From: Oscillospiraceae bacterium
GTDB taxonomy: Bacteria > Bacillota > Clostridia > Oscillospirales > Acutalibacteraceae
DNA: 64,000 nucleotides
NCBI GenBank assembly: GCA_031266365.1
Contig: JAISBE010000012.1
Span: 445 to 64,444 of the forward strand
Direction of reading: 5' to 3'
Below the pieces are notes generated by a model. That model did no database searches. It was not told the origin of the DNA and saw only the letters and a program-made list of their open reading frames with translations. Shown here one piece after another: positions 8,059 through 38,950 of the stretch (its first letter is position 1; the number at the start of each line of letters is the position of its first letter). Both the position numbers and the translations under genes were made by a program.

Positions 8059-8940
8059 TTATGCTTTTAATTCATACAATTCCAACAAACTTAAACTACA
8101 TAAAAATAAAATCTGTTCACGCAGCGTTAATTTGCGATTTTCATCTTTTTTTGACCATTTTTCTATGTTTCGTGCTGCTTTGACCGTGATTTTCTTCAAT
8201 ACATCTTTAGCTTCATCGGAAAGCCCCACAGTATAAATAGAGAAACGACCTTCTGTTTGAGGTTTTGGGTAATCATCTATCCCCATGCCGATCAAAAACC
8301 AATCTGCGTGATACTCACCTGCAGCAGACGACATTCCAGCATAATCGGCGATTAATTCGTCGTGCAAATTATTTTGAGAAGAACCCAAAAAACGCTTTGT
8401 AAAATAATGCGTACATTCATGTTCACGACGAATTATAAGCGAAAAATCTTTCCATTGCTCGTCTTCAAGCCCCAATTTTTGCGCAGGAATGTTGCTATAC
8501 GGCTTATTCGAAAGAATTATGAACCTCGTGGACTTTCCATTCGCAAAACTAGCACCTGTTTTCTCTATGCCTGGAAATTCCTTGCCTTTGTGTATTAATT
8601 TTATTACCAATTCCTCAAAATCTTTAGTATCCGTGGCATAAAATATTGGAATTGGGCCCGCTAAAGAATCATATATTTCTATTTTTACGCCTTCTGGTTT
8701 TTGAAGAACTATATCTTCTTCCCCATGAGATATATTATTGTTTAAAGCAGCCACTATGCCCTGATCTTTTACCTTTTCTATAAAGCTTTTCCAAGCTCCA
8801 ATAAACGGTTCCTCTGCGATTACTTCTGGAATTTGGGGATTTTTACCAAAGCGGTTAGCAGTATAATCAAGTAATTCCTGCAAAATTTCGCCCTTGGCTC
8901 CAATCGCTTCCAATAATTCGCTGCTCTTATCAATTGGCAT
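8059..8940 (-). CDS. hypothetical protein with HExxH motif (putative metallopeptidase-like), last gene of the GG-leader peptide operon
   Basis: 293-aa ORF containing REHECTHYF (H-E-C-T-H). It starts 18 nt downstream of the preceding peptide gene on the same strand. Confidence 0.5.
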   Translation of the reverse strand: MPIDKSSELLEAIGAKGEILQELLDYTANRFGKNPQIPEVIAEEPFIGAWKSFIEKVKDQGIVAALNNNISHGEEDIVLQKPEGVKIEIYDSLAGPIPIFYATDTKDFEELVIKLIHKGKEFPGIEKTGASFANGKSTRFIILSNKPYSNIPAQKLGLEDEQWKDFSLIIRREHECTHYFTKRFLGSSQNNLHDELIADYAGMSSAAGEYHADWFLIGMGIDDYPKPQTEGRFSIYTVGLSDEAKDVLKKITVKAARNIEKWSKKDENRKLTLREQILFLCSLSLLELYELKA

Positions 8941-8958: not shown

Positions 8959-9165
8959 CTAGTCTGGTTCCACAGACTCAACATTAGGCTCAGCTTCAGG
9001 CTCAGCTTCAAGCGGACCGAGCGTTGAAAATTGCTCTCCACCGAGCATCATTCCGTTGTTATTGTTCAAATCGCCACTATAGTTCTGTTGCGTCGCATCA
9101 CCTCCACCTATAACAAATCCCATTTGGTTATCGTTAAGTTTACGCAATTCTTCTTTTTTTGACAT
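8959..9165 (-). CDS. double-glycine-leader peptide precursor (bacteriocin-like)
   Basis: Start trimmed to MSKKEELRKLNDNQMGFVIGG|GDATQQ..., where AAAGGA lies 9 nt upstream. The 21-aa leader ends in VIGG. The core is acidic: GPLEAEPEAEPNVESVEPD. Confidence 0.6.
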   Translation of the reverse strand: MSKKEELRKLNDNQMGFVIGGGDATQQNYSGDLNNNNGMMLGGEQFSTLGPLEAEPEAEPNVESVEPD

Positions 9166-9387
9166 AATATTCATTCCTTTCCCCAATTCAATTTATAAGT
9201 TTTATTTTCTTTCCAACAAGATATATCAAAACAAAAACAGTAATGCGAGCAGCTCATCTGCAAACCTTTTATTTTTGCCATAATTGACTTTTTAATCATA
9301 CGAGCAACGCTAGTTAAGCTGAATATTTTTTTGATATAACCACATTGCTCGCATTCATTCGATATATTCAACTTTAAGTTACCAAAA

Positions 9388-9759
9388 TTATTTGTTACTA
9401 TACTTGTTGTTGTATACCTCCACTCCAACCAATGCCGCTAAGCCCGCAAGAGATTGTGCTAAGTCGATAACTTTTTGACTCCCTCCCGCTACGTTAACTA
9501 CATTTCCGACTACCTGACTAGCTAGTCCCACCGCCGCGGTTGAGTCCACCGCACCACCGGCGACTTGTGATATATTTGCCTCATTTAGCTGGGCACAGAC
9601 CGATCGCAATTCTTCGACAAATTCTTCGTAAGACAAACCGTCCAAGTAAGGTTTAAGAAAAGCTTCACCTTCTTTTTGAGTTTTCAGTTCTCCGAGTTTT
9701 CTAGCCAATTCCGGGCGTTTCACTAATTCATCAACAAATCTTTTCACTTGATCTTTCAT
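9388..9759 (-). CDS. Nif11-like long-leader GG peptide precursor
   Basis: About 68 aa of helical leader (MKDQVKRFVDELVKRPELARKLGELKTQKEGEAFLKP...NEANISQVAGG) followed by a Gly/Ala/Val-rich core. The leader architecture resembles Nif11-type leaders. Confidence 0.55.
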   Translation of the reverse strand: MKDQVKRFVDELVKRPELARKLGELKTQKEGEAFLKPYLDGLSYEEFVEELRSVCAQLNEANISQVAGGAVDSTAAVGLASQVVGNVVNVAGGSQKVIDLAQSLAGLAALVGVEVYNNKYSNK

Positions 9760-9846
9760 ATTGATTATACCTCTTTCCTAAATAAAATAGAAATTTCCTC
9801 ATATATATCTCACTAGCTATGATCGCTAGTTTGTAATCTAATTTAC

Positions 9847-10245
9847 TCAAAAACTTTTATCGCCATTTTTTAATGGATGCTCACATTCATAGCCATGCAC
9901 ATCTTTTACTTGGCCCTTCCCATCTGTGGCATATATGCCATTATAAGTCAATATTAGCGATCCATTATTATAGCCGCCAGAAACATATTGCAGCAGCATA
10001 TCGTCGTTTGAATCTAGTTCCGCGGACTTATTCATAGCTAAATATCGATTCAATATTTTTCTGAAATCGCGGTAAGAAAGCTTGTCAAAATATGCCTTTG
10101 CTATTTCATATTTTTCTCTATCGGAAAGGTTAGAGCTAAAATCTCTTTTCAGTTGCTCATCTCGCTCAAGCTCTTCAAAAAACTTTTCTATTTCCTTGCT
10201 TTTCAGTTCTTTTAAAAAATCTTCTATTTCATTTTTCATACACAT
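9847..10245 (-). CDS. Nif11-like long-leader GG peptide precursor
   Basis: Leader ...FLKELKSKEIEKFFEELERDEQLKRDF...DDMLLQYVSGG, then a roughly 43-aa core YNNGSLILTYNGIYATDGKGQVKDVHGYECEHPLKNGDKSF. The second ATG at 10239 is an alternative start. Confidence 0.5.
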   Translation of the reverse strand: MCMKNEIEDFLKELKSKEIEKFFEELERDEQLKRDFSSNLSDREKYEIAKAYFDKLSYRDFRKILNRYLAMNKSAELDSNDDMLLQYVSGGYNNGSLILTYNGIYATDGKGQVKDVHGYECEHPLKNGDKSF

Positions 10246-12631: not shown

Positions 12632-12710
12632 CGCATTGCCCTCCCTATATTGCAAATTATCATATTTATATTCACGCGCATTATAATATAATTATTTAAG
12701 GACCATGGTT

Positions 12711-13460
12711 ATGTACATACGCACAGAAGGTCTCATAGTAATGGAACAGAATATAGGAGAAAAAGATAAACTCTTAACCATTTTGACAAAATGTGAAGGG
12801 CTAATCCGCGTATTTGCGCGCGGTGTGAAAAGCTTTCTCAATCGCAATGCCTCTGCAACGCAGCTTTTTTGCTATTCTGATTTAATATTATATAAAACTA
12901 AGGATAAATACGTTTTAACCGAAGCGAGTGCAAAAGTGCTATTTTTTGATCTCCGAAACGATATCGAAAAGCTCTCTTTGGCAGAATACTTTTGCGAATT
13001 AACCATCGCCTTAACGTCACATAATCACGAAATTGGCGACATTTTAAGCCTAATTTTAAACTCATTTCATTACCTGCAGACTGGAAAAATTTGCGCAAAT
13101 TTACTCAAACCTATTTTCGAAATAAAAATTCTATGTTTTTCCGGATATACGCCAAATCTTATTTGCTGCAAAGACTGTGCCGCCTACTGTGCATCGACAT
13201 TTTATTGGATTTTAAAAGAAGGCTCGATTTTTTGCGAAAATTGCTTTAAAAATCATTTTGCTCCAGGTTTGACGCTACACAGTGCTCCCTTAGCCGCCTT
13301 ACGCCACATTATTTACGCTGAGCCTAAAAAAACATTTTGGTTTGAACTTTCCTACGAAAGCAAAAAAGAACTAATTTACGCAGCAGAGCAGTATATTCTC
13401 TATTGCCTTGAAAAAGAGTTAAAAACGCTCGATTTTTACAATTTAATCGCTCAAAACTAA
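12711..13460 (+). CDS. recO: DNA repair protein RecO
   Basis: About 249 aa with an OB-fold-like N-terminus (MYIRTEGLIVMEQNIGEKDKLLTILT) and a C-terminal Cys cluster CCKDCAAYC...FCENC. The second ATG has the better RBS spacing. Confidence 0.82.
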   Translation: MYIRTEGLIVMEQNIGEKDKLLTILTKCEGLIRVFARGVKSFLNRNASATQLFCYSDLILYKTKDKYVLTEASAKVLFFDLRNDIEKLSLAEYFCELTIALTSHNHEIGDILSLILNSFHYLQTGKICANLLKPIFEIKILCFSGYTPNLICCKDCAAYCASTFYWILKEGSIFCENCFKNHFAPGLTLHSAPLAALRHIIYAEPKKTFWFELSYESKKELIYAAEQYILYCLEKELKTLDFYNLIAQN

Positions 13461-13821: not shown

Positions 13822-13850
13822 TTGACATCAAGAATAAATTATAGTAAAAT
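13822..13850 (+). promoter_or_regulatory. promoter candidate ahead of the cassette array
   Basis: TTGACA (13822-13827), 17-nt spacer, TAAAAT (13845-13850). Confidence 0.3.
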
Positions 13851-13915
13851 TAAATTAATATTTGATCAAATAGAAAACTATTATAATTTATAAAAACATG
13901 AAAGGAAGTATACCC

Positions 13916-14500
13916 ATGAACATTAATTTTCGTAAACTCAAAAACTCTTTATTAAGCCTCGGCTTAAGTGCTACCTTATTTTCTGCCTCCGGCCTAAAGA
14001 CGCTTGCTGAGCCGTTATCCCTGAGCTTTGTCAAGCAGCAGCTGAAGGACCTCCTCCCTGCCCCGACGGCGCCCCCTGATGAAATGGCGCGTGGTGTGCG
14101 TCTGCTACTAACGCGTGCGAGCCTATTTACACATGAGGGAGCCCAGCGGCAGGTTAAAGATGCCGATGGTCGAATCAGTAAGACGGAGGAGTGGGCTTCC
14201 GTTGTACGCTTGAATGCCGACACTTTCTACGTTAATACGCATAACTTAGCGAACGTGGCTGGAGTCGCGAAGTCTACGGTGAACGCGCGTCTGAAGGCAG
14301 CAAAAGTAATAAGAGTTTTTCTTACAGAGTCAGATATACGCTATGTGGAGGGGATAGTACCGACTCGCATCAGATCGAACTATTGGAGAAAAAGCACTCT
14401 AACGGCGGCTCCACCCATAGCGGCGCATGCACTGTTTCCCGACAAAGACTCTTCTGATGGCACAACTTGGGAGGAACAATTCGATTTAGCTGATGAATGA
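13916..14500 (+). CDS. cassette protein U1: Sec signal peptide plus GC-rich variable domain
   Basis: AAAGGAAG RBS 7 nt before the ATG. MNINFRKLKNSLLSLGLSATLFSASGLKTLA|EP. The upstream ATG is ACG or out of frame in sister cassettes, so the second ATG is used. Acidic aromatic tail TWEEQFDLADE. Confidence 0.7.
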   Translation: MNINFRKLKNSLLSLGLSATLFSASGLKTLAEPLSLSFVKQQLKDLLPAPTAPPDEMARGVRLLLTRASLFTHEGAQRQVKDADGRISKTEEWASVVRLNADTFYVNTHNLANVAGVAKSTVNARLKAAKVIRVFLTESDIRYVEGIVPTRIRSNYWRKSTLTAAPPIAAHALFPDKDSSDGTTWEEQFDLADE

Positions 14501-14521
14501 GCTGTGAGATGAAAACATCTT

Positions 14522-14542
14522 AATCGGGGGTACCCCCCGATT
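14522..14542 (+). repeat. cassette 3' palindrome (hairpin) after U1
   Basis: AATCGGGGGTACCCCCCGATT, a near-perfect inverted repeat. It is followed by the conserved CTTCACACCCCACCGCATTTAATTTAAATAAAAAATT. Confidence 0.75.
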
Positions 14543-14614
14543 CTTCACACCCCACCGCATTTAATTTAAATAAAAAATTAATATAATTTATAAAAACACG
14601 AAAGGAAGTTACCC

Positions 14615-15274
14615 ATGAACCTTAATTTTCGTAAACTTAAAAACTCCTTATTAAGCCTCGGCTTAAGCGCTACCTTATTTTGCACCGCCGGCCTGGCCGG
14701 AGTGCCCGCTTCAGCTAACGACCCGAACCCAGAGGCAACCAGTGCGTACCAACGGAAGGTAGTAACTATGCAGTACCGGAGCACAGCCGAGGGCGGAGAG
14801 TTTGCCAACCTGTCCGACTGGTTACACCAAGTCACAGACATGTCCACAGAGGCCAGAGAACAGGGAGCTGAGGTGGGCATATACTGGCAGGTCCGCGACC
14901 AGGTACTGTGCCTGAACTCGCAGATCCTGGCGGGCGATTTAGGTATTAAAGTTAACACGCTGAATAAACGACTGAAAGGGACATGCGGTCCGGCGCAGCC
15001 CTTAACGGTAGCACAAGTGAAAGAGATGGGGTACGCGAAACCAAGGAGCTGGTGCAAACGCGCTTTTTGGCCCAAGCGCACGACCCGCATGGTCGAGCCG
15101 CCGACGGCAGCGTGGATTCAAGGACCCGGGGCAAGCCTCGGCCGCCTGGCGACCGCCATCGCTGCCCCTGCACCGGCGCAACCGTTAGCCCCTCCGGTCT
15201 GTATCAGCCCTCAAATTGAAGATCATGATACGGACGGTTTGAATGACTGGGATCCTGACTTTGGATGGACTTGA
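14615..15274 (+). CDS. cassette protein U2
   Basis: MNLNFRKLKNSLLSLGLSATLFCTAGLAGVPASA|NDP. GC-rich body. Tail DWDPDFGWT. Closest paralogue is U3. Confidence 0.7.
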   Translation: MNLNFRKLKNSLLSLGLSATLFCTAGLAGVPASANDPNPEATSAYQRKVVTMQYRSTAEGGEFANLSDWLHQVTDMSTEAREQGAEVGIYWQVRDQVLCLNSQILAGDLGIKVNTLNKRLKGTCGPAQPLTVAQVKEMGYAKPRSWCKRAFWPKRTTRMVEPPTAAWIQGPGASLGRLATAIAAPAPAQPLAPPVCISPQIEDHDTDGLNDWDPDFGWT

Positions 15275-15288
15275 CCCTGAAAAATCTT

Positions 15289-15309
15289 AATCAAGGGTAC
15301 CCCCCGATT
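15289..15309 (+). repeat. cassette 3' palindrome after U2 (imperfect)
   Basis: AATCAAGGGTACCCCCCGATT, in the same position relative to the conserved tail. Confidence 0.65.
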
Positions 15310-15381
15310 CTTCACACCCCACCGCATTTAATTTAAATAAAAAATCATTATAATTTATAAAAACACGAAAGGAAGTTACCC

Positions 15382-16071
15382 ATGAACCTTAATTTTCGTA
15401 AACTTAAAAACTCCTTATTAAGCCTCGGCTTAAGTGCTACCTTATTTTGCACCGCCGGCCTGGCCGGCTTACCCGTTTTCGCTACCGACCCGAACCCAGA
15501 GGAAACCAGGGCGTACCGACAGACTGTAAAAGCTATGCTGTACCCGCGCACACCCACGGGCGTACAGTTTGACACCATGCAAGACTGGTTACACGGAGTA
15601 GCGGACGTGTCCACAGTGGCCAGAGCGCGTGGGGCTGTGGTGGGCATATTCTGGCGGGTCCCAGGTAGGGAATTGTGCCTAAACAAGCATATCATGGCGA
15701 GCGATTAAGGTCTTAAAGTTAACACGGTGGCGAAACGACTGAAACTGGTTAGATCCGGTCCGGCGCGTCGCTTACCGGTAGAACTCGCGATAATGCTGGG
15801 TGGCGCGAACCCAACGCACTGGTCCCGCCGCGCTTTCTGGCACGAGCCAAGACCCCCCGTGGGCGTGACACAAGCGGCAAACGGGGAAGCACTAGCCGAG
15901 GCGAGCCAAGGCCCGCTCGCGATACCACGAGCGGCCAATGCATCGGCAACAGCGTTAGCCCTTCCTGCCTCTACCAGCCCTGAAATTCAAAATTATGACT
16001 GGGATCTCGACGATACACCCTTTAGAGAGTACCCTGACCCGCATGACGACGCGGACGACTTTTGGCGCTGA
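15382..16071 (+). pseudogene. cassette U3, interrupted by one in-frame TAA (15706-15708)
   Basis: The two track ORFs (15382..15708 and 15727..16071) are in the same frame. U2 has GAT TTA GGT ATT AAA GTT AAC where U3 has GAT TAA GGT CTT AAA GTT AAC. Confidence 0.65.
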
Positions 16072-16167
16072 GCCGGGTCGGTCACGGCACCCTGGTGGAC
16101 TAACTGCGTAAGTGCCGGCAGCACGCCCAACCACCGGACTGGGATAAGCTTGAAAATGAAACATCGT

Positions 16168-16189
16168 AATCGGGGGTACCCCCACGATT
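16168..16189 (+). repeat. cassette 3' palindrome after U3
   Basis: AATCGGGGGTACCCCCACGATT. Confidence 0.7.
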
Positions 16190-16262
16190 CTTCACACCCC
16201 ACCGCATTTAATTTAAATAAAAAATTATTATAATTTATAAAAACATGAAAGGAAGTATACCC

Positions 16263-16982
16263 ATGAACATTAATTTTCGTAAACTCAAAAACTCTTTATT
16301 AAGCCTCGGCTTAAGCGCCACCTTATTTTGCACCGCCGGCCTGGCCGGCTTACCCGTTTTCGCTACCGACCCGATACGCGAAGTGGCCTTAAGGGAATGC
16401 GTTATCGGAATCGGAAGGGGGGCAATCAGGTACAGCCGCGGAAAGGCTAGGGCCGTATTTGTAGCTATTGTGAATCAACTAGTAAACCTTGCGTCAGTGG
16501 CTGCCAAGCGTGGAGTCATCGGTCCAGATGGACGGCCAGTGCCGCTACATTGCGTACTACCACTAATCCCGCTGGGACGCGGCGCATTCATGGTGCATAC
16601 ACAACTGCTAGCTGAGGTCGCGAAGGTAAGTAAATCTTCGGTTAACTCAAACTGGTGCGCAATAGGTTATAACAGCTCAACGCCGACTCCCGCGCAGATA
16701 GCACAACTAGAGATGCAACCACACCAGTGTCGGAGCTGGACGGTCCGCACGCTACGGACACCCGAATCTACCGGCGAACCGGAGGTCCACGCCGACGAGG
16801 CGCACACGGATGCTCCGACAAGCACACCAGGGGGATCCTTCGCGCAGGCTGACTGGCCGGAACTCTCGCTACCCGAGCAACCCGAGGGCTACGACCCATT
16901 AGCAGACACAGACACTGGGAGCGGCGAATACGGCTTTTTTGAACGTGACGTCGCTACCGAAGACCAAAGGTGGCTTTTTTGA
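16263..16982 (+). CDS. cassette protein U4
   Basis: MNINFRKLKNSLLSLGLSATLFCTAGLAGLPVFA|TDPIRE... Paralogue of U5. Contains ...SKSSVNSNWCAIGY...CRSWTVRTL. Confidence 0.7.
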   Translation: MNINFRKLKNSLLSLGLSATLFCTAGLAGLPVFATDPIREVALRECVIGIGRGAIRYSRGKARAVFVAIVNQLVNLASVAAKRGVIGPDGRPVPLHCVLPLIPLGRGAFMVHTQLLAEVAKVSKSSVNSNWCAIGYNSSTPTPAQIAQLEMQPHQCRSWTVRTLRTPESTGEPEVHADEAHTDAPTSTPGGSFAQADWPELSLPEQPEGYDPLADTDTGSGEYGFFERDVATEDQRWLF

Positions 16983-17065
16983 CCTTGCCGTCGCTCCCGA
17001 CGACCCTTGGCCTGTACTTAGTCCCAGTGGTTCAAAAGAACCCTTTTAAATGAAAAATTGTAATC

Positions 17066-17079
17066 GGGCGCTCTCGCCC
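17066..17079 (+). repeat. cassette 3' hairpin after U4 (different sequence, same position)
   Basis: GGGCG-CTCT-CGCCC followed by ATTTTTCACACCCAACCGCATTTAATTTAAAT. The stem sequence is replaced but pairing is preserved, and a T-run follows. Confidence 0.6.
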
Positions 17080-17155
17080 ATTTTTCACACCCAACCGCAT
17101 TTAATTTAAATAAAAAATTATTATAATTTACAAAAACATGAAAGGAAGTATACCC

Positions 17156-17884
17156 ATGAACCTTAATTTTTGTAAACTTAAAAGCTCCTTATTAAGCCTC
17201 GGCTTAAGTGCCACCTTATTTTGCTCCAGCCTGGCCTGCTTCCACGTTTCCGCTAACGACCCGATACGCGAAAAGGATTTAAGGGCACAACTTATCGAAC
17301 TCAAAAGAAAAGCCGCGCCAGTCAAGTATCAGCGCGGACGGGCTGGGGCCGTATTTGCAGCTCTTTGGAATGAACTACTAACAATTGCGAATGAGGCTGC
17401 CGCGAGTGGAGTCATAGATGAAGCCGGAAGGCCAGTGCCGCTGCATACCGTACTATCACTAATACGGCTGGGGCCGACAGCATTCGCAATGAACACACCC
17501 GCCCTAGCGAAGGACTTAGGGAGAAGTAAATCTTGTGTTAACAACCAGTTGTGGAAACTAGGTTATACCAGCTCTCCGCTGACTACCGAGCATATGGCAC
17601 AACTAGGGATGCGACCACACCAGTGTCGGAGCTGGACGGTCCGCACGCTCTGCCCACCCGAAAATACCGGCGAAGATGGGGGCTCTGCCGACGAGGCACT
17701 CACGAGTAATCCCCCAGAATCAACCGGCGACTCCTTCGCGCCCGCTGAATGGCCGAGACTATCGCTACCCGATCGACCCGCGGGCGCGGGCCGCTTGGCA
17801 CTCACAGACACTGGGCGAGGCGACGGTGGCTTTTTTGCCCTTGACCATGCTCCAGCCGGCGCCAGCTGGTTTGACCTTTACTGA
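17156..17884 (+). CDS. cassette protein U5
   Basis: MNLNFCKLKSSLLSLGLSATLFCSSLACFHVSA|NDPIRE... Contains LAKDLGRSKSCVNNQLWKLGY...CRSWTVRTL. Tail ASWFDLY. Confidence 0.7.
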   Translation: MNLNFCKLKSSLLSLGLSATLFCSSLACFHVSANDPIREKDLRAQLIELKRKAAPVKYQRGRAGAVFAALWNELLTIANEAAASGVIDEAGRPVPLHTVLSLIRLGPTAFAMNTPALAKDLGRSKSCVNNQLWKLGYTSSPLTTEHMAQLGMRPHQCRSWTVRTLCPPENTGEDGGSADEALTSNPPESTGDSFAPAEWPRLSLPDRPAGAGRLALTDTGRGDGGFFALDHAPAGASWFDLY

Positions 17885-17904
17885 GCTTAGGAATGAAAAA
17901 TCTT

Positions 17905-17925
17905 AGCCGAGGGTTACCCCCGATT
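17905..17925 (+). repeat. cassette 3' palindrome after U5 (degenerate)
   Basis: AGCCGAGGGTTACCCCCGATT followed by CCTCACACCCCACTGCATTTAATTTAAAT. Confidence 0.55.
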
Positions 17926-17997
17926 CCTCACACCCCACTGCATTTAATTTAAATAAAAAATCATTATAATTTATAAAAACACGAAAGGAAGTTACAC

Positions 17998-18603
17998 ATG
18001 AACCTTAATTTTCGTAAATTCAAAAGCTCTTTATTAAGCCTCGGCTTAAGCGCTACCGTATCTTTCGGCTTCGGCCTACCCGGCTTCCACGCTTTCGCCA
18101 TTGATCCAATACCGACCACGCGGGGCGCCTGGAGGGCCGCGTTGTTGAGCGTGAGGCGATACCACGAGCCGGGCAAGAGAGGCAACCACGCTGAAAAGGC
18201 CGATACCAAAGCGCGGTGGCTTAGGCTGGTGGCATTGGCGCCCGGGCCCGAAGGCAATGAAATACTTGGTGCGGACACAGGTGTCGTAGAGCTCGGTGAC
18301 GGGTTCATCCTAATAAACTCGCGACTAGTGGCAAAGAACTTGGGGCGAAGTAAATCGTGCGTCAACGGACTCCTGGCGGAGCTAACTTACGAAAGACAAC
18401 CGATAGCTGGTGAGCACAGGCAAGTGTTGCGCGGGCTCACGAAAAAACCTCGTGAGTGGTCTCTGCGCAAAATCAAGCCGCAAGGCGCGCAGGACGGGGG
18501 CCGAGCCACGACCCACTCGCCCGATACTAGACCTTTCAACCCTGATCAGGACGGCGCGCCTACATGGGATCCTGTCGATGACTGCGACTTTGATGAGATC
18601 TGA
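17998..18603 (+). CDS. cassette protein U6
   Basis: MNLNFRKFKSSLLSLGLSATVSFGFGLPGFHAFA|IDP... Contains LVAKNLGRSKSCVNGLLAELTY...PREWSLRKI. Tail WDPVDDCDFDEI. Confidence 0.7.
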   Translation: MNLNFRKFKSSLLSLGLSATVSFGFGLPGFHAFAIDPIPTTRGAWRAALLSVRRYHEPGKRGNHAEKADTKARWLRLVALAPGPEGNEILGADTGVVELGDGFILINSRLVAKNLGRSKSCVNGLLAELTYERQPIAGEHRQVLRGLTKKPREWSLRKIKPQGAQDGGRATTHSPDTRPFNPDQDGAPTWDPVDDCDFDEI

Positions 18604-18611
18604 ACAGTCTT

Positions 18612-18633
18612 AATCGGGGGTACCCCCACGATT
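18612..18633 (+). repeat. cassette 3' palindrome after U6
   Basis: AATCGGGGGTACCCCCACGATT followed by CTTCACACCCCACCGCATTTAATTTCAAC. Confidence 0.7.
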
Positions 18634-18705
18634 CTTCACACCCCACCGCATTTAATTTCAACAGAAAATTGTTATAATTTATAAAAAAATGAAAGGAAGT
18701 TACAC

Positions 18706-19860
18706 ATGAAACTTAATTTTCGTAAACTTAAAAACTCCTTATTAAGCCTCGGCTTAAGTGCTACCTTATTTTGCACCGCCGGCCTCGCCGGCTTACCCGT
18801 TTTCGCCGAGGGACCTGCCACAATGGATGAGTGGCGCGAAGCGATACTACGCATCCTGGCCGGGATGCCAGAGTACTCTGCGCGGGGGAAGGACGCAGAA
18901 GCCCGCACATCCACTCTGTTGCACAACCAACTGGCAGTGAGCCGACAAGCACTAGCAAACGGCGTGAAACCACCCCTGCAACCAGTGGAAGGGGGGTTCA
19001 CGATCCACTTGTCGGCATTCGCGAGATACACCGGCATTACCGAACGCCAAGTGGAAAGGCAGCTAGTACGCGGAGGGGCACACTTAGCCGGGCGTGGTGA
19101 TGGCTACTGGAGCTGGTACACACTAGTGTCGGTGGACGACGGTGCAGGTCGCGCGGAAGGCGACATAGTTGAAGCCACCGCCGTTCCTCCCATGGTTGAC
19201 GATCGTGGCCAATTGGAAGTCCAGGTAATAGAAAAATACAAGAAGCTGGAACCAAATTTAGCACTACGCAAGACCGCACGGGGAGAGAACCACCGTCAGT
19301 GGCTGAGAGATTTAATCACGATATCGGAAGAAACCCTCGAGCATGGACAGCCGGACCTAGCGACCGTCGTATTACTGGGCGACGGAACCTCCCTCGCTGT
19401 AAACGCGGGCGCGTTGAGGCGTTTGACTGGTATCTGCAAATCGGCGACGAATTACCGCTTACAAGCCGAGGGACTCCACAAACGCAGCTTAGCGGACGCC
19501 AGCGAGCTGGACGCACGCTTTGGGAGACCATTAGGTTTAGCGGACCGCCGGCACTGGGAAGTCTGGACACCCACCCCGCCCGCTGCGATCGACTATTCTG
19601 AAAAAGATAATCCCTGGTTAACCAGGGCCTTTACGGCCGCGAACTGGTCGCGCCGACCCGGGGAACAACCAGCCATCGCGAGAGGGACGGACGGCAAAAC
19701 CCTATGGGTACGGGTCGAGGAGCTCAGCCGAAAATTAGACACAACGGATCTTGACGTTATGAGGCACCTTGAAAACTTGGGGTACCGGCTCACGGGAACT
19801 AAACAGTGCCGGCTCGCCACAGGTGAAGAAGTGGCATTGACGATCTGGGCACAGCGTTAA
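18706..19860 (+). CDS. cassette protein U7 (largest, about three internal HTH-like repeats)
   Basis: MKLNFRKLKNSLLSLGLSATLFCTAGLAGLPVFA|EGP... 384 aa. Three segments of the form hydrophobic strand, helix, turn, helix: FTIHLSAFARYTGITERQVERQL, SLAVNAGALRRLTGICKSATNYRL and TLWVRVEELSRKLDTTDLDVMRHL. Confidence 0.7.
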   Translation: MKLNFRKLKNSLLSLGLSATLFCTAGLAGLPVFAEGPATMDEWREAILRILAGMPEYSARGKDAEARTSTLLHNQLAVSRQALANGVKPPLQPVEGGFTIHLSAFARYTGITERQVERQLVRGGAHLAGRGDGYWSWYTLVSVDDGAGRAEGDIVEATAVPPMVDDRGQLEVQVIEKYKKLEPNLALRKTARGENHRQWLRDLITISEETLEHGQPDLATVVLLGDGTSLAVNAGALRRLTGICKSATNYRLQAEGLHKRSLADASELDARFGRPLGLADRRHWEVWTPTPPAAIDYSEKDNPWLTRAFTAANWSRRPGEQPAIARGTDGKTLWVRVEELSRKLDTTDLDVMRHLENLGYRLTGTKQCRLATGEEVALTIWAQR

Positions 19861-19988
19861 GAACGAAGTTGCACCCCCCGACGACCGCCCCTGGAGCCAG
19901 CGGTGGTGCCTTGGACCCGGCAAATCAGCTTGGGTTCTTCGAACATCAAGACAACGGAAATTCTCAATGAGCCTTGGCATTAAAAAAT

Positions 19989-20014
19989 CTTACCCGGGGG
20001 TGCATCCTCCGATT
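19989..20014 (+). repeat. degenerate cassette 3' element after U7 (first of two)
   Basis: CTTACCCGGGGGTGCATCCTCCGATT followed by CTTAACATCCCACCACATTTAATTTAAG. Recognisably homologous to the tail block but decayed. Confidence 0.5.
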
Positions 20015-20097
20015 CTTAACATCCCACCACATTTAATTTAAGACGACCACACACACCTGGTACGGCGAGGCGCGTGAACGGTGAGATGAAATATCGA

Positions 20098-20118
20098 AAT
20101 CGAGGGTTACCCCCGATT
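20098..20118 (+). repeat. cassette 3' palindrome (second copy after U7, precedes the U8 head)
   Basis: AATCGAGGGTTACCCCCGATT followed by CTTCACGCCCCACCGCATTTAATTTAAATAAAAAATT. Confidence 0.65.
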
Positions 20119-20190
20119 CTTCACGCCCCACCGCATTTAATTTAAATAAAAAATTATTATAATTTACAAAAACATGAAAGGAAGTTACAT

Positions 20191-20952
20191 ATGAAACTTA
20201 ATTTTCGTAAACTCAAAAACTCCTTATTAAGCCTCGGCTTAAGCGCCACCTTATTTTGCAGCTCCGGCCTGGCCAGCTTACCCGTTTTTGCTGAACCTGT
20301 AGTACTATCTGCTCTCAATATGCGTCTAGACGAAAAGAAGAAGCACTGGAGCGACTTTGACGTGGATAGCATGGTGAACACTGAACTGACATATACAGAG
20401 GAGCTGTTAGCCCATGGGGCAGTTGATGAAAAAGGTATGTGGAGTCCCGGTGAAGGGCACCTCGCCGTCGTATACGTAGGTTCTGGAGTTGTCGCAATTA
20501 AGATACAGACGTTATCAAAAAGGGCGGACAGAGCTAAAAGTCGATTAAACAAGGTACTTGCTTCTGCAGGTTATACCCCTTTAACACCGACTGAGGGTCA
20601 CAAGCACATCCTAGCGTCACGACTAAAAGTAAACCCACATGACAGATCTTTAGTGTCCTGGTCGTTCCGAATCAAACCGGATCGCCGCGCGGACGCAGAC
20701 AGGGCATCTAGTGACGCTGAGGCTACGGATGACCCTGCATTACAATTCCCAAGATTAGCAGAGGAACCAGCAGATGCTATGATTTTTTCCAGAATGCAAG
20801 GCGAAGCTACACAGCACGTCTTGCAATTTGGCCAGGGTGATTTAAGGCCGCACCCGGCCAAATTTGTTGCACCAGCTTCTGAGGACCGGATTATTGTTAG
20901 ATGCAGTAAAGACAGGATCCCCGAATGCGCATGCTGCTATCGCGTTGACTGA
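20191..20952 (+). CDS. cassette protein U8 (terminal, less GC-rich, no conserved tail element)
   Basis: MKLNFRKLKNSLLSLGLSATLFCSSGLASLPVFA|EP... The body is visibly less GC-rich than U1-U7. The array ends without the palindrome block. Confidence 0.65.
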   Translation: MKLNFRKLKNSLLSLGLSATLFCSSGLASLPVFAEPVVLSALNMRLDEKKKHWSDFDVDSMVNTELTYTEELLAHGAVDEKGMWSPGEGHLAVVYVGSGVVAIKIQTLSKRADRAKSRLNKVLASAGYTPLTPTEGHKHILASRLKVNPHDRSLVSWSFRIKPDRRADADRASSDAEATDDPALQFPRLAEEPADAMIFSRMQGEATQHVLQFGQGDLRPHPAKFVAPASEDRIIVRCSKDRIPECACCYRVD

Positions 20953-21159: not shown

Positions 21160-22029
21160 ATGCAGATCAAAAAAGCCGTCATACCCGCCGCCGGTCTTGG
21201 AACACGAGTTTTACCTGCAACAAAAGTCATGCCAAAAGAAATGCTCCCGATCGTGGACAAGCCTGCCATTCAATACATAGTAGAAGAAGCGGTGGCATCA
21301 GGAATCGAAGATATATTAATTATCACAAGTCGTGGCAAAGACTTGATAGAAGACCACTTTGATAAAACTCCAGAATTAGAAAGCCGCCTATATGGAACCC
21401 AAAAATATAAGCTTCATCAAGATATCCTCGATATTTCAAATCTTGCAAATATATATTTTCTTCGCCAAAAAGAAGCAAAAGGGTTGGGGCATGCCGTTTT
21501 ATGCGCGCGATCATTCGTGGGAAATGAGCCTTTCGCCGTTTTATATGGAGATGACGTAATCATTGGCGAAAAGCCCGTTACCAAGCAACTAATGGAAGTT
21601 TACGAAAAATTCGAGCGCGGTGTTTTAGGCGTTAAAAAGGTCTCCAGTGACGTTATTCAAAACTACAGTTCAATAAAAATAGACCCAATATATGACAATA
21701 TTTATAGTTGTACAGATATGATCGAAAAGCCCTCCAAAGATCAGGTCTTATCGCTCTATTCCATCTTGGGACGCTGCATACTTCCACCTGAGATATTTGA
21801 AGTATTAGAAAATACAAAGCCGGGCCGCGGTGACGAGATTCAATTAACCGATGCCATGTGCATTATAGCGCAAAGCACCGGTTTTATGGCAGTGGATTTT
21901 ATTGGCAAACGTTACGATATGGGAGATAAATTAGGCATAATGAAAGCTTCTGTTGAAACCGCTCTAACTCATCCAGAAATTGGAGAAAGCTTTAGAGGAT
22001 ATCTAAAGAAAGTTTGCATGAATTTATAA
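21160..22029 (+). CDS. galU: UTP--glucose-1-phosphate uridylyltransferase
   Basis: KAVIPAAGLGTRVLPATKVMPKEMLPIVDKPAIQYIVEEA, the canonical GalU N-terminus. 289 aa. Confidence 0.9.
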   Translation: MQIKKAVIPAAGLGTRVLPATKVMPKEMLPIVDKPAIQYIVEEAVASGIEDILIITSRGKDLIEDHFDKTPELESRLYGTQKYKLHQDILDISNLANIYFLRQKEAKGLGHAVLCARSFVGNEPFAVLYGDDVIIGEKPVTKQLMEVYEKFERGVLGVKKVSSDVIQNYSSIKIDPIYDNIYSCTDMIEKPSKDQVLSLYSILGRCILPPEIFEVLENTKPGRGDEIQLTDAMCIIAQSTGFMAVDFIGKRYDMGDKLGIMKASVETALTHPEIGESFRGYLKKVCMNL

Positions 22030-37606: not shown

Positions 37607-38950
37607 TCAGTCCAAAAACCCTTTATAATGACGCTGCATCATCTGCGCCTCCATCTGTTTAACAGTTTCTAAAGCAACACCCACTAATATTATAATCGAA
37701 GTTCCTCCAAAAGACAAATAACTCAGTGAACTTATTCCTCCAAATGCCATAGGCAGCAATGCGATAAATGCCAAGAATAAAGCACCAATCAATGTGACTT
37801 TAGAAAGAACTTTTGTTATAAAATCCGAAGTCGGTTTGCCCGGACGAATCCCAGGTACTGTTCCATTGCTCTGTTTGAGGTTATTAGCTATCTCTATTGG
37901 ATTATATTGGATAGAAACGTAAAAATACGCAAACATTATTATCAACAAGAAATATAAACCAGCATACAGCCAACCGTTCGGCGATAAGGCTGTTAAGATA
38001 GTCTTCCACAAACCCGGCTCAGCTTGTTCTATAGTTTTCGCATGGGTCAATTGGTAAACAGTGACAGGTAACATTAAGATTGTACTCGCAAAAATAATCG
38101 GCATAACGCCTGTGAGTCCCACCTTAATCGGCAAATGACTATTCTGCCCGCCATACATCTTCCGGCCAACCAAACGCTTCGCATACTGAATTGGTATACG
38201 CCTTTCTGCATCGTTCATAAATACAATAACCCAAATTAAACCTAAGAACATAACCACAAATAACGGCACAAAAATGAAATTTCCACTCAATGATTCCGGA
38301 TTTTCTATAGCTGAAGTGATGGAAACCCACAATTTTCCTATCATATCCGGCATTCTTGAAACAATTCCTGCAAACAGCAGAATTGATATACCATTTCCTA
38401 TTCCCTTTTTGTTAACTTGTTCTCCAAGCCACATCATCATTGCCGTTCCCGCTGTGAAAGCTGCAACGATAACCACGGCAGCAAACCAAGACTCCCAACC
38501 TGTCCTAAACGGCACAATATAGCGGGCTCCATGATGTTGATTTTTCAAAATCCAATAAAACCCCACACCTTGCATTACCCCAATAATCACCGTTACGTAT
38601 CGCGTTATAGCTGCAATTTTTTTATGCCCTTCTTCGCCTTCTTTTGATAATCTTTCCAAAACAGGGAGGCCAACCGTCAATAATTGCATGATAATCGAAG
38701 AGTTGATATAAGGCTGCACAGACATTGCAAATAAAGTTGCATGGGCAAAAGCACCACCTGAGAACATGTTAAATTGCGCAAATAATCCTTCATTCGCGGC
38801 ATCGGCCATGTAGCCCTTTAGTGCTTCCACATCTAAAAACGGAACTGGGATCACAGACCCTAATCTGAAAACTATTATAATAAATAGAGTAAAGATAATT
38901 TTCTTTCTCAAATCAGGCACATTCCATGCGTTTCTTATCGTTTGAAACAA
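37607..38950 (-). CDS. secY: preprotein translocase subunit SecY
   Basis: 447-aa, 10-TM type ORF between rplO and adk. Confidence 0.94.
   Translation of the reverse strand: MFQTIRNAWNVPDLRKKIIFTLFIIIVFRLGSVIPVPFLDVEALKGYMADAANEGLFAQFNMFSGGAFAHATLFAMSVQPYINSSIIMQLLTVGLPVLERLSKEGEEGHKKIAAITRYVTVIIGVMQGVGFYWILKNQHHGARYIVPFRTGWESWFAAVVIVAAFTAGTAMMMWLGEQVNKKGIGNGISILLFAGIVSRMPDMIGKLWVSITSAIENPESLSGNFIFVPLFVVMFLGLIWVIVFMNDAERRIPIQYAKRLVGRKMYGGQNSHLPIKVGLTGVMPIIFASTILMLPVTVYQLTHAKTIEQAEPGLWKTILTALSPNGWLYAGLYFLLIIMFAYFYVSIQYNPIEIANNLKQSNGTVPGIRPGKPTSDFITKVLSKVTLIGALFLAFIALLPMAFGGISSLSYLSFGGTSIIILVGVALETVKQMEAQMMQRHYKGFLD

Follow-up and report, generated by a model that had tools for sequence, protein, structure and literature searches.

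A G+C-rich tandem array of initiator-binding-domain proteins in an Oscillospiraceae bacterium and its probable derivation from a parabasalid gene

How does a chromosome of 36% G+C come to hold a run of eight genes with bodies of 49-61% G+C, each of them placed behind nearly the same promoter-proximal and signal-peptide sequence? The question is raised by a stretch of 64,000 nucleotides (positions 445 to 64,444 of contig JAISBE010000012.1, GenBank assembly GCA_031266365.1; hereafter the window) from an Oscillospiraceae bacterium of the family Acutalibacteraceae. The source is a metagenome-assembled genome, in which the locus carries the tags LBJ95_02635-02660, and the same locus is present on a 67-kb contig of the Joint Genome Institute (JGI). 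The array is flanked by housekeeping genes (metG, recO, galU and an ABC transporter), and the list of open reading frames (ORFs) agrees with the first-pass annotation of this DNA, made from the sequence alone, in placing eight units in the recO-galU interval, all on the + strand and all in one direction. Our answer, which we consider likely, is that the array is a tandemly amplified gene family whose bodies derive from a parabasalid gene for a protein with an initiator-binding domain (IBD, Pfam PF10416). The units, here named U1 to U8, and their flanks are as follows.

12705..13460, + strand: recO, left flank; ORF of 36% G+C, native; the recO-U1-U2 junction is also present in JGI contig L004
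13916..14500, + strand: U1, 194 amino acids, LBJ95_02635; signal peptide, IBD-like body and acidic tail; Pfam IBD 12.4 bits
14615..15274, + strand: U2, 219 amino acids; no Pfam match; best match of the predicted fold is the IBP39 IBD
15382..16071, + strand: U3, paralogue of U2 (45% amino-acid identity) with an in-frame TAA at 15706-15708; probable pseudogene
16263..16982, + strand: U4, 239 amino acids; Pfam IBD 27.2 bits (cut-off 25)
17156..17884, + strand: U5, 242 amino acids; Pfam IBD 32.7 bits
17998..18603, + strand: U6, 201 amino acids; Pfam IBD 27.5 bits
18706..19860, + strand: U7, 384 amino acids; long form, in which IBD-like modules number more than one; helix-turn-helix core clearest at mature residues 195-220
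20191..20952, + strand: U8, 253 amino acids, LBJ95_02660; lowest body G+C (49%), no tail behind it
21160..22029, + strand: galU, right flank; ORF of native composition

The compositional step is sharp. G+C amounts to 52.3% in the array (13881-20952) and to 36.1% in the remaining window; in a 1-kb profile it ranges from 46.9% to 58% within the array, with a maximum of 45.8% elsewhere in the window. The excess is present at every codon position (approximately 0.62, 0.50 and 0.60 at first, second and third positions of the bodies versus 0.45, 0.34 and 0.33 in native genes). Within the array, the edge copies U1 and U8 have the bodies of lowest G+C, while the heads and intergenic blocks (35-48%) are lowest of all. 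Four spot counts of G+C from which the first-pass annotation had argued for such a step (47/60 inside a body, 22/60 in a head, 15/60 in galU and 7/60 in the flanking intergenic region) were reproduced exactly, and the step itself holds in the 1-kb profile and in codon-position G+C, two checks that the annotation had proposed.

On sequence and profile comparison, all eight bodies belong to a single protein family, the IBD family ('Transcription-initiator DNA-binding domain IBD' in Pfam), a winged-helix domain first described in Trichomonas vaginalis IBP39. PF10416 is the best Pfam match for six of the eight units: the cut-off of 25 bits is passed by U4, U5 and U6, while U1 (12.4 bits), U7 (16.7 bits) and U8 (15.9 bits) fall beneath it and U2 and U3 have no match. 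These five units are tied to the family by a chain of paralogues, by profile or by fold; U1, for example, aligns across the IBD core despite its low score. Differing cassettes of a second strain (contig L002, described below) match PF10416 at 25.9 (a 330-residue cassette), 24.7 and 23.3 bits. The bodies had been described as largely unalignable between non-adjacent units, which is correct for their DNA, where identities of 38-48% are at the level of shuffled sequence (41 +/- 3%) and only the adjacent pairs U2/U3 and U4/U5, at 71%, are exceptions; the mean over the bodies is 45%. As proteins they are clearly homologous, aligning along the core L-A-x-x-L-G-x-S-K-S-x-V-N-x-x-L-x-x-x-G-Y ... R-S-W-x-x-R with body-to-body BLASTP links of E 1e-5 to 1e-63.

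Searches beyond the array led repeatedly to parabasalids. A profile of the mature bodies, run against 1.84 billion representative proteins, added approximately 25 proteins of 130-290 amino acids without signal peptides, among them one from Histomonas meleagridis and one gene of the same genome, LBJ95_01455; the matches P0011 and P0013-P0015, which were spurious and due to a Closterium-type repeat, and P0017, a repeated helix-turn-helix protein, were set aside. A word-indexed search with the joint alignment returned 160 matches, and all of the named ones were parabasalid proteins annotated as 'Initiator binding domain-containing protein', from Tritrichomonas foetus, T. musculus, Histomonas and Trichomonas vaginalis, the remainder being unnamed proteins on short metagenome contigs. 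Direct BLASTP comparison with metagenomic IBD proteins gave 32.5% identity over 120 amino acids for U4 with P0022 (E 4e-12), and E-values of 7e-10 for U5 with P0023 and 6.5e-10 for U6 with P0021; overall, the bacterial units are 20-33% identical to any sampled eukaryotic member of the family. The homology extends over the full length, from N-terminal helices with a (K/R)-Y-x-R motif through the helix-turn-helix and wing to an acidic C-terminus rich in W and F, with aligned motifs K-S-x-x-N in the recognition helix and R-x-W-T/S-x-R, and the likeness of the C-termini is illustrated by ...DWDPDFGWT in U2 and ...GWDPDFFC in P0020.

The gene LBJ95_01455 (P0027) is an IBD gene of the source genome that lies outside the array, on a different contig of 271 kb. 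It is nearest to U4 and U5 (38% identity over 77 amino acids), is annotated without a signal peptide and ends in three Pro-rich repeats of approximately 60 amino acids each. Exact look-ups of P0027 and of U5 returned no record.

Structure prediction was applied to two units, the most typical (U5) and the least typical (U2), the latter being a unit without a Pfam match. The AlphaFold model of U5 has a predicted local distance difference test score above 90 at mature residues 1-135, followed by a disordered acidic C-terminal tail. With Foldseek, the best matches of both models among 350,542 PDB chains were the complexes of IBP39 with the initiator element (Inr), 1PP7 and 1PP8, at probability 1.00, E-values of 3e-3 to 4e-2 and TM-scores on the target of 0.43-0.66 (maxima 0.58 for U5 and 0.66 for U2). 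Next in rank was RNA polymerase I A49, with its tandem winged helix.

If the bodies are parabasalid in kind, their composition becomes intelligible. Residues G, A, R and P make up 0.29-0.38 of the bodies versus 0.16-0.22 of native proteins, and F, Y, M, I, N and K 0.14-0.19 versus 0.32-0.38. This amino-acid make-up is unlike that of the IBD proteins of AT-rich trichomonads, in which the family is AT-rich, and like that of the unnamed metagenomic IBD proteins. Of the nearest eukaryote-type relatives, three were located on contigs of 49-55% G+C (L003, L005 and L006), which have few ORFs and no Shine-Dalgarno sequence, whose IBD genes are without signal peptides, and whose coding G+C is 52-65% with third-position values of up to 0.81. 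Their sources are JGI metagenomes 3300042596 and 3300042618, the numbers of which adjoin that of the metagenome holding the array locus. The contigs are probably nuclear DNA of a protist of the same sample series and are candidates for the donor lineage. With relatives on such contigs in sister metagenomes, the G+C step is best read as donor composition; most simply, the bodies would retain the make-up of a donor parabasalid that was richer in G+C and inhabited the same samples. The lowest G+C at U1 and U8 would be expected if the edge copies are the oldest.

No bacterial relative was found outside the source genome. Neither a signal-peptide pattern nor the pattern RSKS[SAC]VN[AG][LMR][LF] found one in representatives of 185,579 bacterial and archaeal species, a negative that is weak because both patterns are narrow and the collection evidently does not include the source genome. 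Protein and head 20-mer scans of a metagenome contig collection gave no match, although JGI contigs with the locus exist elsewhere, and the NCBIfam, PHROG and PADLOC libraries had no match to the array proteins. The first-pass annotation had allowed that the anomaly would lessen if the family proved equally G+C-rich across low-G+C relatives; instead, the family is absent from the other bacteria searched and AT-rich in AT-rich trichomonads. Its suggestion that the bodies are foreign coding DNA is upheld by composition and by the restriction of named homologues to parabasalids.

In contrast to the bodies, the heads are closely similar. From 45 nucleotides before the ATG to 101 after it, pairwise identity is 77-95% (mean 87%), as the annotation of conserved heads had implied, and the head 20-mer TTATTAAGCCTCGGCTTAAG has exactly eight copies in the window, all of them in the array, where 0.01 would be expected by chance. 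Seven palindromic tails had been described as separate elements, and a conserved tail with a hairpin does follow U1-U7 and is lacking after U8; tail and following head are, however, a single conserved block of approximately 210 nucleotides, in the order 21-nucleotide hairpin, TTCACACCCCACCGCATTTAATTTAA, TATAAT box, GAAAGGAAG, ATG and 31-34 signal-peptide codons. An eighth tail copy (19979-20041) is an orphan. All eight tail copies of the window fold as a G+C-rich hairpin (-4 to -14.6 kcal/mol), and in one of them the stem sequence is altered and the pairing retained; copies were folded one by one, as consensus folding misplaces the stems owing to gaps. A TATAAT-type box had been assigned to each unit, and it is present in the heads, but a strong promoter match (TTGACA-17-TAAAAT, 11 of 12 positions) occurs upstream of U1 only. 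These elements, together with one gene outside the array that is relevant to export, are:

13822..13850, + strand: putative sigma-70-like promoter TTGACA-17-TAAAAT upstream of U1, by sequence match
13880..14008, + strand: first head, with TATAAT box, GAAAGGAAG ribosome-binding site, ATG at 13916 and signal-peptide codons MNINFRKLKNSLLSLGLSATLFSASGLKTLA
14509..14716, + strand: conserved block 1, with hairpin 14522-14542, TATAAT 14582-14587, ribosome-binding site and U2 signal-peptide codons
15277..15483, + strand: conserved block 2, tail and U3 head
16156..16364, + strand: conserved block 3, tail and U4 head
17050..17257, + strand: conserved block 4, tail and U5 head, with variant hairpin GGGCG/CGCCC and then a T run
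17893..18099, + strand: conserved block 5, tail and U6 head
18600..18807, + strand: conserved block 6, tail and U7 head, the tail abutting the U6 stop codon
19979..20041, + strand: orphan tail, which with a G+C-rich scrap at 20042-20085 forms the scar of a lost cassette
20086..20292, + strand: conserved block 7, tail and U8 head
37607..38950, - strand: secY, Sec translocon channel, outside the array (context); Pfam SecY, 356.7 bits

A role of the tail as a terminator is unsupported on the + strand, save for the copy between U4 and U5 with its trailing T run. Six of the eight window tails open with ATGAAA(A/C/T)AT(C/T)..., a potential mini-ORF of 19 codons, of which the tail at 14509-14568 is an example and whose ATG is replaced by CTG in two copies. 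It reads MKNLNRGYPPILHTPPHLI in the L002 copy, its first bases resemble ATGAACCTTAAT of the head, and the JGI gene caller joined it to the U7 allele (P0006). G+C-rich stretches also lie between the stop codons and tails of U3 (16072-16155) and U4 (16983-17049), where intergenic G+C is 0.40-0.47 versus 0.35 in other intergenic stretches; these look like former coding sequence left by premature stops. The segment 16932-16965 is duplicated at 16972-17005.

Relationships among heads and among bodies disagree, which indicates recombination among copies. Between U4 and U6, synonymous divergence (dS) is 0.14 in the head and saturated in the corresponding body, and the heads of U1 and U4 (13880-13968 and 16227-16315) share 89 identical nucleotides while their bodies are unalignable as DNA, an identity that points to recent gene conversion between non-adjacent copies. 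The ratio of non-synonymous to synonymous substitution (dN/dS) amounts to 1.15 in one of the close pairs and 1.09 in the other, to 1.2-1.55 inside the folded domain and to approximately 0.9 between strain alleles of U7 and U2, and no value is distinguishable from 1. Seven of the eight frames are open over 160-350 body codons, and only 0-6 of 5000 composition-matched shuffles are free of in-frame stops.

Three independent assemblies establish that the locus is not an assembly artefact, because they contain the junctions at either flank as well as several of those between head and body, and they also reveal how strains differ. The Logan assembly of SRR14710922 (contig L001) runs from U8 through galU and beyond at 100% identity. 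Of two contigs from JGI metagenome 3300042612, L004 carries recO-U1-U2 with U1 identical and U2 98% identical, and L002 carries U7-U8-galU at 95.7% (U7, with an insertion of approximately 70 nucleotides) and 99.6% identity, the U8 protein itself being identical. In the comparison of strains across the recO-galU interval, as had been proposed, U1 and U2 are kept at the left edge and U7 and U8 at the right edge, with other cassettes between them. Upstream of U7, L002 has a 330-residue and a 348-residue two-module cassette, a 144-residue cassette and a headless ORF of 325 amino acids. Over its last 23 residues this ORF matches the end of U3 at 91% identity, and it is a product of recombination inside the array; part of the 348-residue protein matches U8. 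At 1258-2682 of L002, the 144-residue cassette is followed directly by the headless ORF, which has an internal duplication of approximately 105 amino acids. The pattern as a whole is the behaviour expected of a tandem array that evolves by unequal crossing-over and gene conversion with a fast-evolving cargo, and we favour one transfer followed by duplication; the best BLASTP match of most units is another bacterial copy.

Homology, fold, composition, the build of the array and its variation among strains are shown by the results above, and direction of transfer, secretion, association with a host and any influence on host transcription are inferred. How such a locus could have been assembled, and what it may do, can be set out as a conditional sequence of steps. 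The eukaryotic N-terminus of an acquired IBD gene would have been swapped once for a native promoter-proximal region, ribosome-binding site and Sec-type signal peptide, and the resulting unit of head, body and hairpin tail would then have been multiplied through unequal crossing-over. High G+C of the bodies would be the composition of the donor, worn down only in part. Heads and tails would remain alike since they carry expression and export signals and recombination among copies homogenizes them, while the bodies would diverge fast and copies would be gained, lost and broken, so that strains come to differ in the middle of the array. Each protein has a winged-helix DNA-binding domain of the type that recognizes Inr in Trichomonas, with a short acidic, aromatic tail behind it.

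The signal peptide, judged by eye, has the three canonical regions, with a charged MN(L/I)NFRKLK, a hydrophobic SLLSLGLSATLF... and then V-F-A or A-x-A, with small residues at -3 and -1, before the mature part. As no lipobox, wall anchor or membrane segment was seen in them, the mature IBD proteins should be released; in a single-membrane cell, Sec export would deliver them outside. If the cell lives within a parabasalid, as its relatives do, this outside would be the host cytoplasm, with a possible path onward to host DNA and to rivalry with, or mimicry of, host IBD proteins. The chief core-promoter element of parabasalids is Inr, which is read by IBD proteins, and transcription initiation in Trichomonas depends centrally on Inr and IBP39 (PMC7946386). 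Imitation of host IBD proteins or competition with them would be the likeliest function. The more specific proposal that the array supplies diversifying mimics of the host Inr recognition factor, which are exported, enter the protist nucleus and redirect or rival host IBD proteins, is put forward tentatively, as possible but rather doubtful. Should it be correct, the bacterium would act directly on transcription initiation of its host, turnover of cassettes would be driven by an arms race between host and symbiont, and the array would be the first known case of bacterial effectors directed at a core-promoter element of a eukaryote.

A number of observations weigh against this interpretation or parts of it. 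The Foldseek E-values are modest (approximately 3e-3), sequence searches of the PDB with the body profile, with U5 alone and with a broader profile returned nothing meaningful, and the alignments used for modelling held parabasalid IBD proteins, so that the fold test is not fully independent and offers corroboration rather than proof. The C-terminal domain of IBP39 is lacking: in the models of U5 and U2, the folded part of 115-135 residues is followed by nothing but an acidic tail of low confidence, approximately 70 residues long, and the bacterial proteins are therefore members of the IBD family and not orthologues of IBP39. Third-position G+C of 0.44-0.65 persists although non-adjacent bodies look saturated, which is hard to square with a long stay in an AT-rich genome and is not fully explained; recent fast divergence from a donor of very high third-position G+C, divergence before transfer or biased gene conversion may each account for it. 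In a neighbour-joining tree of the IBD core, the six typical units group in 39 of 200 bootstraps; with alignments this saturated, so weak a clade does not prove a single acquisition. The dN/dS values near 1, the nonsense-broken U3, the cassette scar and the headless ORF of L002 would fit decay as well. Finally, an endosymbiotic life is assumed from relatives, and LeuS is only 71-72% identical to that of named Acutalibacteraceae and Ruminococcaceae genomes. The G+C of the source genome (36%) does lie inside the 30-39% of the endosymbiont 'small genome clade', and no ATP/ADP translocase was present among the scanned ORFs of the window.

Several of these points could be taken to mean that different host IBD paralogues, or a host gene cluster, were acquired repeatedly and each placed behind a shared promoter and signal-peptide head through recombination at the conserved heads and tails, making the locus one of true cassette exchange. 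Non-adjacent bodies at shuffled identity, retention of high third-position G+C, strain-specific middle cassettes and chimeric ends such as that of the 325-residue ORF would all suit this explanation, as would a distance from unit to nearest eukaryote-type relative that is about the same as that between bacterial subfamilies. Host genes, however, have neither head nor tail and so offer no substrate for homologous insertion, no recombinase gene or attC-like site was found, most units match another bacterial copy better than any sampled eukaryotic protein, the neighbour-joining tree, weak as it is, groups the bacterial copies, and no eukaryote-type relative exceeded approximately 33% identity among the hundreds sampled from sister metagenomes; we regard repeated capture as unlikely. 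The capture locus or secretion trap proposed in the first-pass annotation is likewise at odds with the presence of a single body family, since all proteins found with the array signal peptide in a collection of 5.8 billion proteins had an IBD-type body, and with the lack of an integrase, transposase or attC-like site near the array. Its alternative of a targeted diversification process finds no counterpart either: the window ORFs scanned include no integrase, transposase or reverse transcriptase, and no pair of template and variable repeats was found. A diversity-generating retroelement was rejected because, besides the missing reverse transcriptase, the only body repeats are whole-gene paralogues (71%) with substitutions of all kinds and indels, and a silent-cassette locus of the vls/msp2 type because each of the units is equipped with a ribosome-binding site, an ATG, a signal peptide and a stop codon. 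Among the options first raised, it is a fast-evolving effector family that fits the evidence.

The same array could be a relic of a single transfer, amplified and now drifting neutrally, with heads kept alike by recent recombination and proteins without function. This is compatible with a dN/dS of approximately 1, whichever partition of the close pairs is taken and also when strain alleles are compared, with the nonsense codon of U3, the scar at 19979-20085 and the headless ORF. It sits poorly with seven open frames, K-S-x-x-N and R-x-W motifs retained in every copy, indels between paralogues in multiples of three and the identity of U1 and U8 between strains, and we think it improbable. The G+C excess might instead have been made in place, by GC-biased gene conversion or by selection for proteins rich in Gly, Ala, Arg and Pro; recombination among copies is evident, signal-peptide codons have a third-position G+C of approximately 0.5 versus approximately 0.33 in native genes, and the persistence of high third-position G+C is otherwise puzzling. 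Yet G+C is lowest (35-48%) in the heads and intergenic blocks, where recombination has been greatest, the bodies have no sign of homogenization, and the nearest non-bacterial relatives lie on G+C-rich DNA that already accounts for the excess, which renders an origin in place quite improbable. A chimeric assembly of protist and bacterial DNA would be conceivable in a metagenome-assembled genome of a mixed sample, but eight in-frame fusions of signal peptide and body, with the recO-U1-U2 and U7-U8-galU junctions found in separate JGI and Logan assemblies at 98-100% identity, speak against it; passage of a bacterial family to parabasalids is opposed by the abundance of paralogues across four parabasalid genera and by the lack of any family member among the bacterial species representatives that were searched. 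We hold either of these to be very improbable.

Elsewhere in the window, three small ORFs of 75, 123 and 132 amino acids at 8959-10245 (- strand), beside 8059-8940, adjoin a DUF7005 gene. Their helical leaders end in a double glycine (...VIGGG, ...QVAGG and ...YVSGG), and they look like bacteriocin or Nif11-type precursor peptides, although NCBIfam had no match for them.

Here we have described a locus that provides a probable natural example of gene transfer from eukaryote to bacterium and of fusion of a foreign domain to a native export signal, and that illustrates how tandem arrays may keep their ends and regulatory parts while the cargo diverges. At least eight predicted-exported copies of an Inr reader suggest a very direct route by which a symbiont or parasite could influence gene expression of its host. 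For the scanning of genomes, effector genes of host origin can be recognized by a sharp G+C step where 'hypothetical proteins' stand in an array.

The absence of any described system of this sort, as first supposed, was too strong a claim. Endosymbiotic Clostridia of termite-gut parabasalids ('Candidatus Improbicoccus' and relatives), with 30-39% G+C, carry protist-derived 'eukaryotic-like' regulatory genes, including Myb-like DNA-binding factors closest to Trichonympha; approximately half of these genes have Sec or lipoprotein signal peptides, interference with the host was proposed by the authors, and the IBD domain is not among the domains listed (Takahashi et al. 2023, PMC10579323). The present bacterium matches them at the level of family (Acutalibacteraceae/Oscillospiraceae), in its low G+C range and in the use of a domain that is otherwise restricted to eukaryotes, all named homologues being parabasalid, and it differs in that a single family has been amplified to at least eight tandem copies with a common head and tail and strain-variable content. 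The kind of system is therefore already known, as host-derived, eukaryote-like genes with signal peptides in protist endosymbionts, and the mechanism is not unprecedented; what is new, as far as the literature shows, is the domain, a parabasalid core-promoter reader, the strain-variable array of at least eight copies with a shared export head, and the compositional mosaic. With IBP39 and other parabasalid IBD proteins the bacterial units share the winged-helix fold, the motifs of recognition helix and wing, and the N-terminal helices, and many parabasalid members are of similarly small size and end in an acidic stretch with many W and F residues; the units differ in bearing a signal peptide in place of the eukaryotic N-terminus.

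Two further systems invite comparison. Integron cassette arrays have in common with this locus co-directional cassettes, imperfect-palindrome ends and strain-variable content, but here no integrase was found among the ORFs scanned, the 21-nucleotide hairpin is without attC core sites (no GTTRRRY occurs in the conserved block), ribosome-binding site, start codon and signal peptide are supplied by each cassette itself, and one family is found throughout. Nucleus-targeted and eukaryotic-like effectors of Legionella, Chlamydiae and plant pathogens (e.g. TAL effectors) include eukaryote-type or mimic proteins that act on host chromatin or transcription, often in expanded and fast-evolving families, and are delivered by type III or type IV secretion from double-membrane bacteria. 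The array proteins, in contrast, have a Sec signal only, in a presumed single-membrane bacterium, and we know of no previous description of a bacterium that targets a core-promoter recognition factor.

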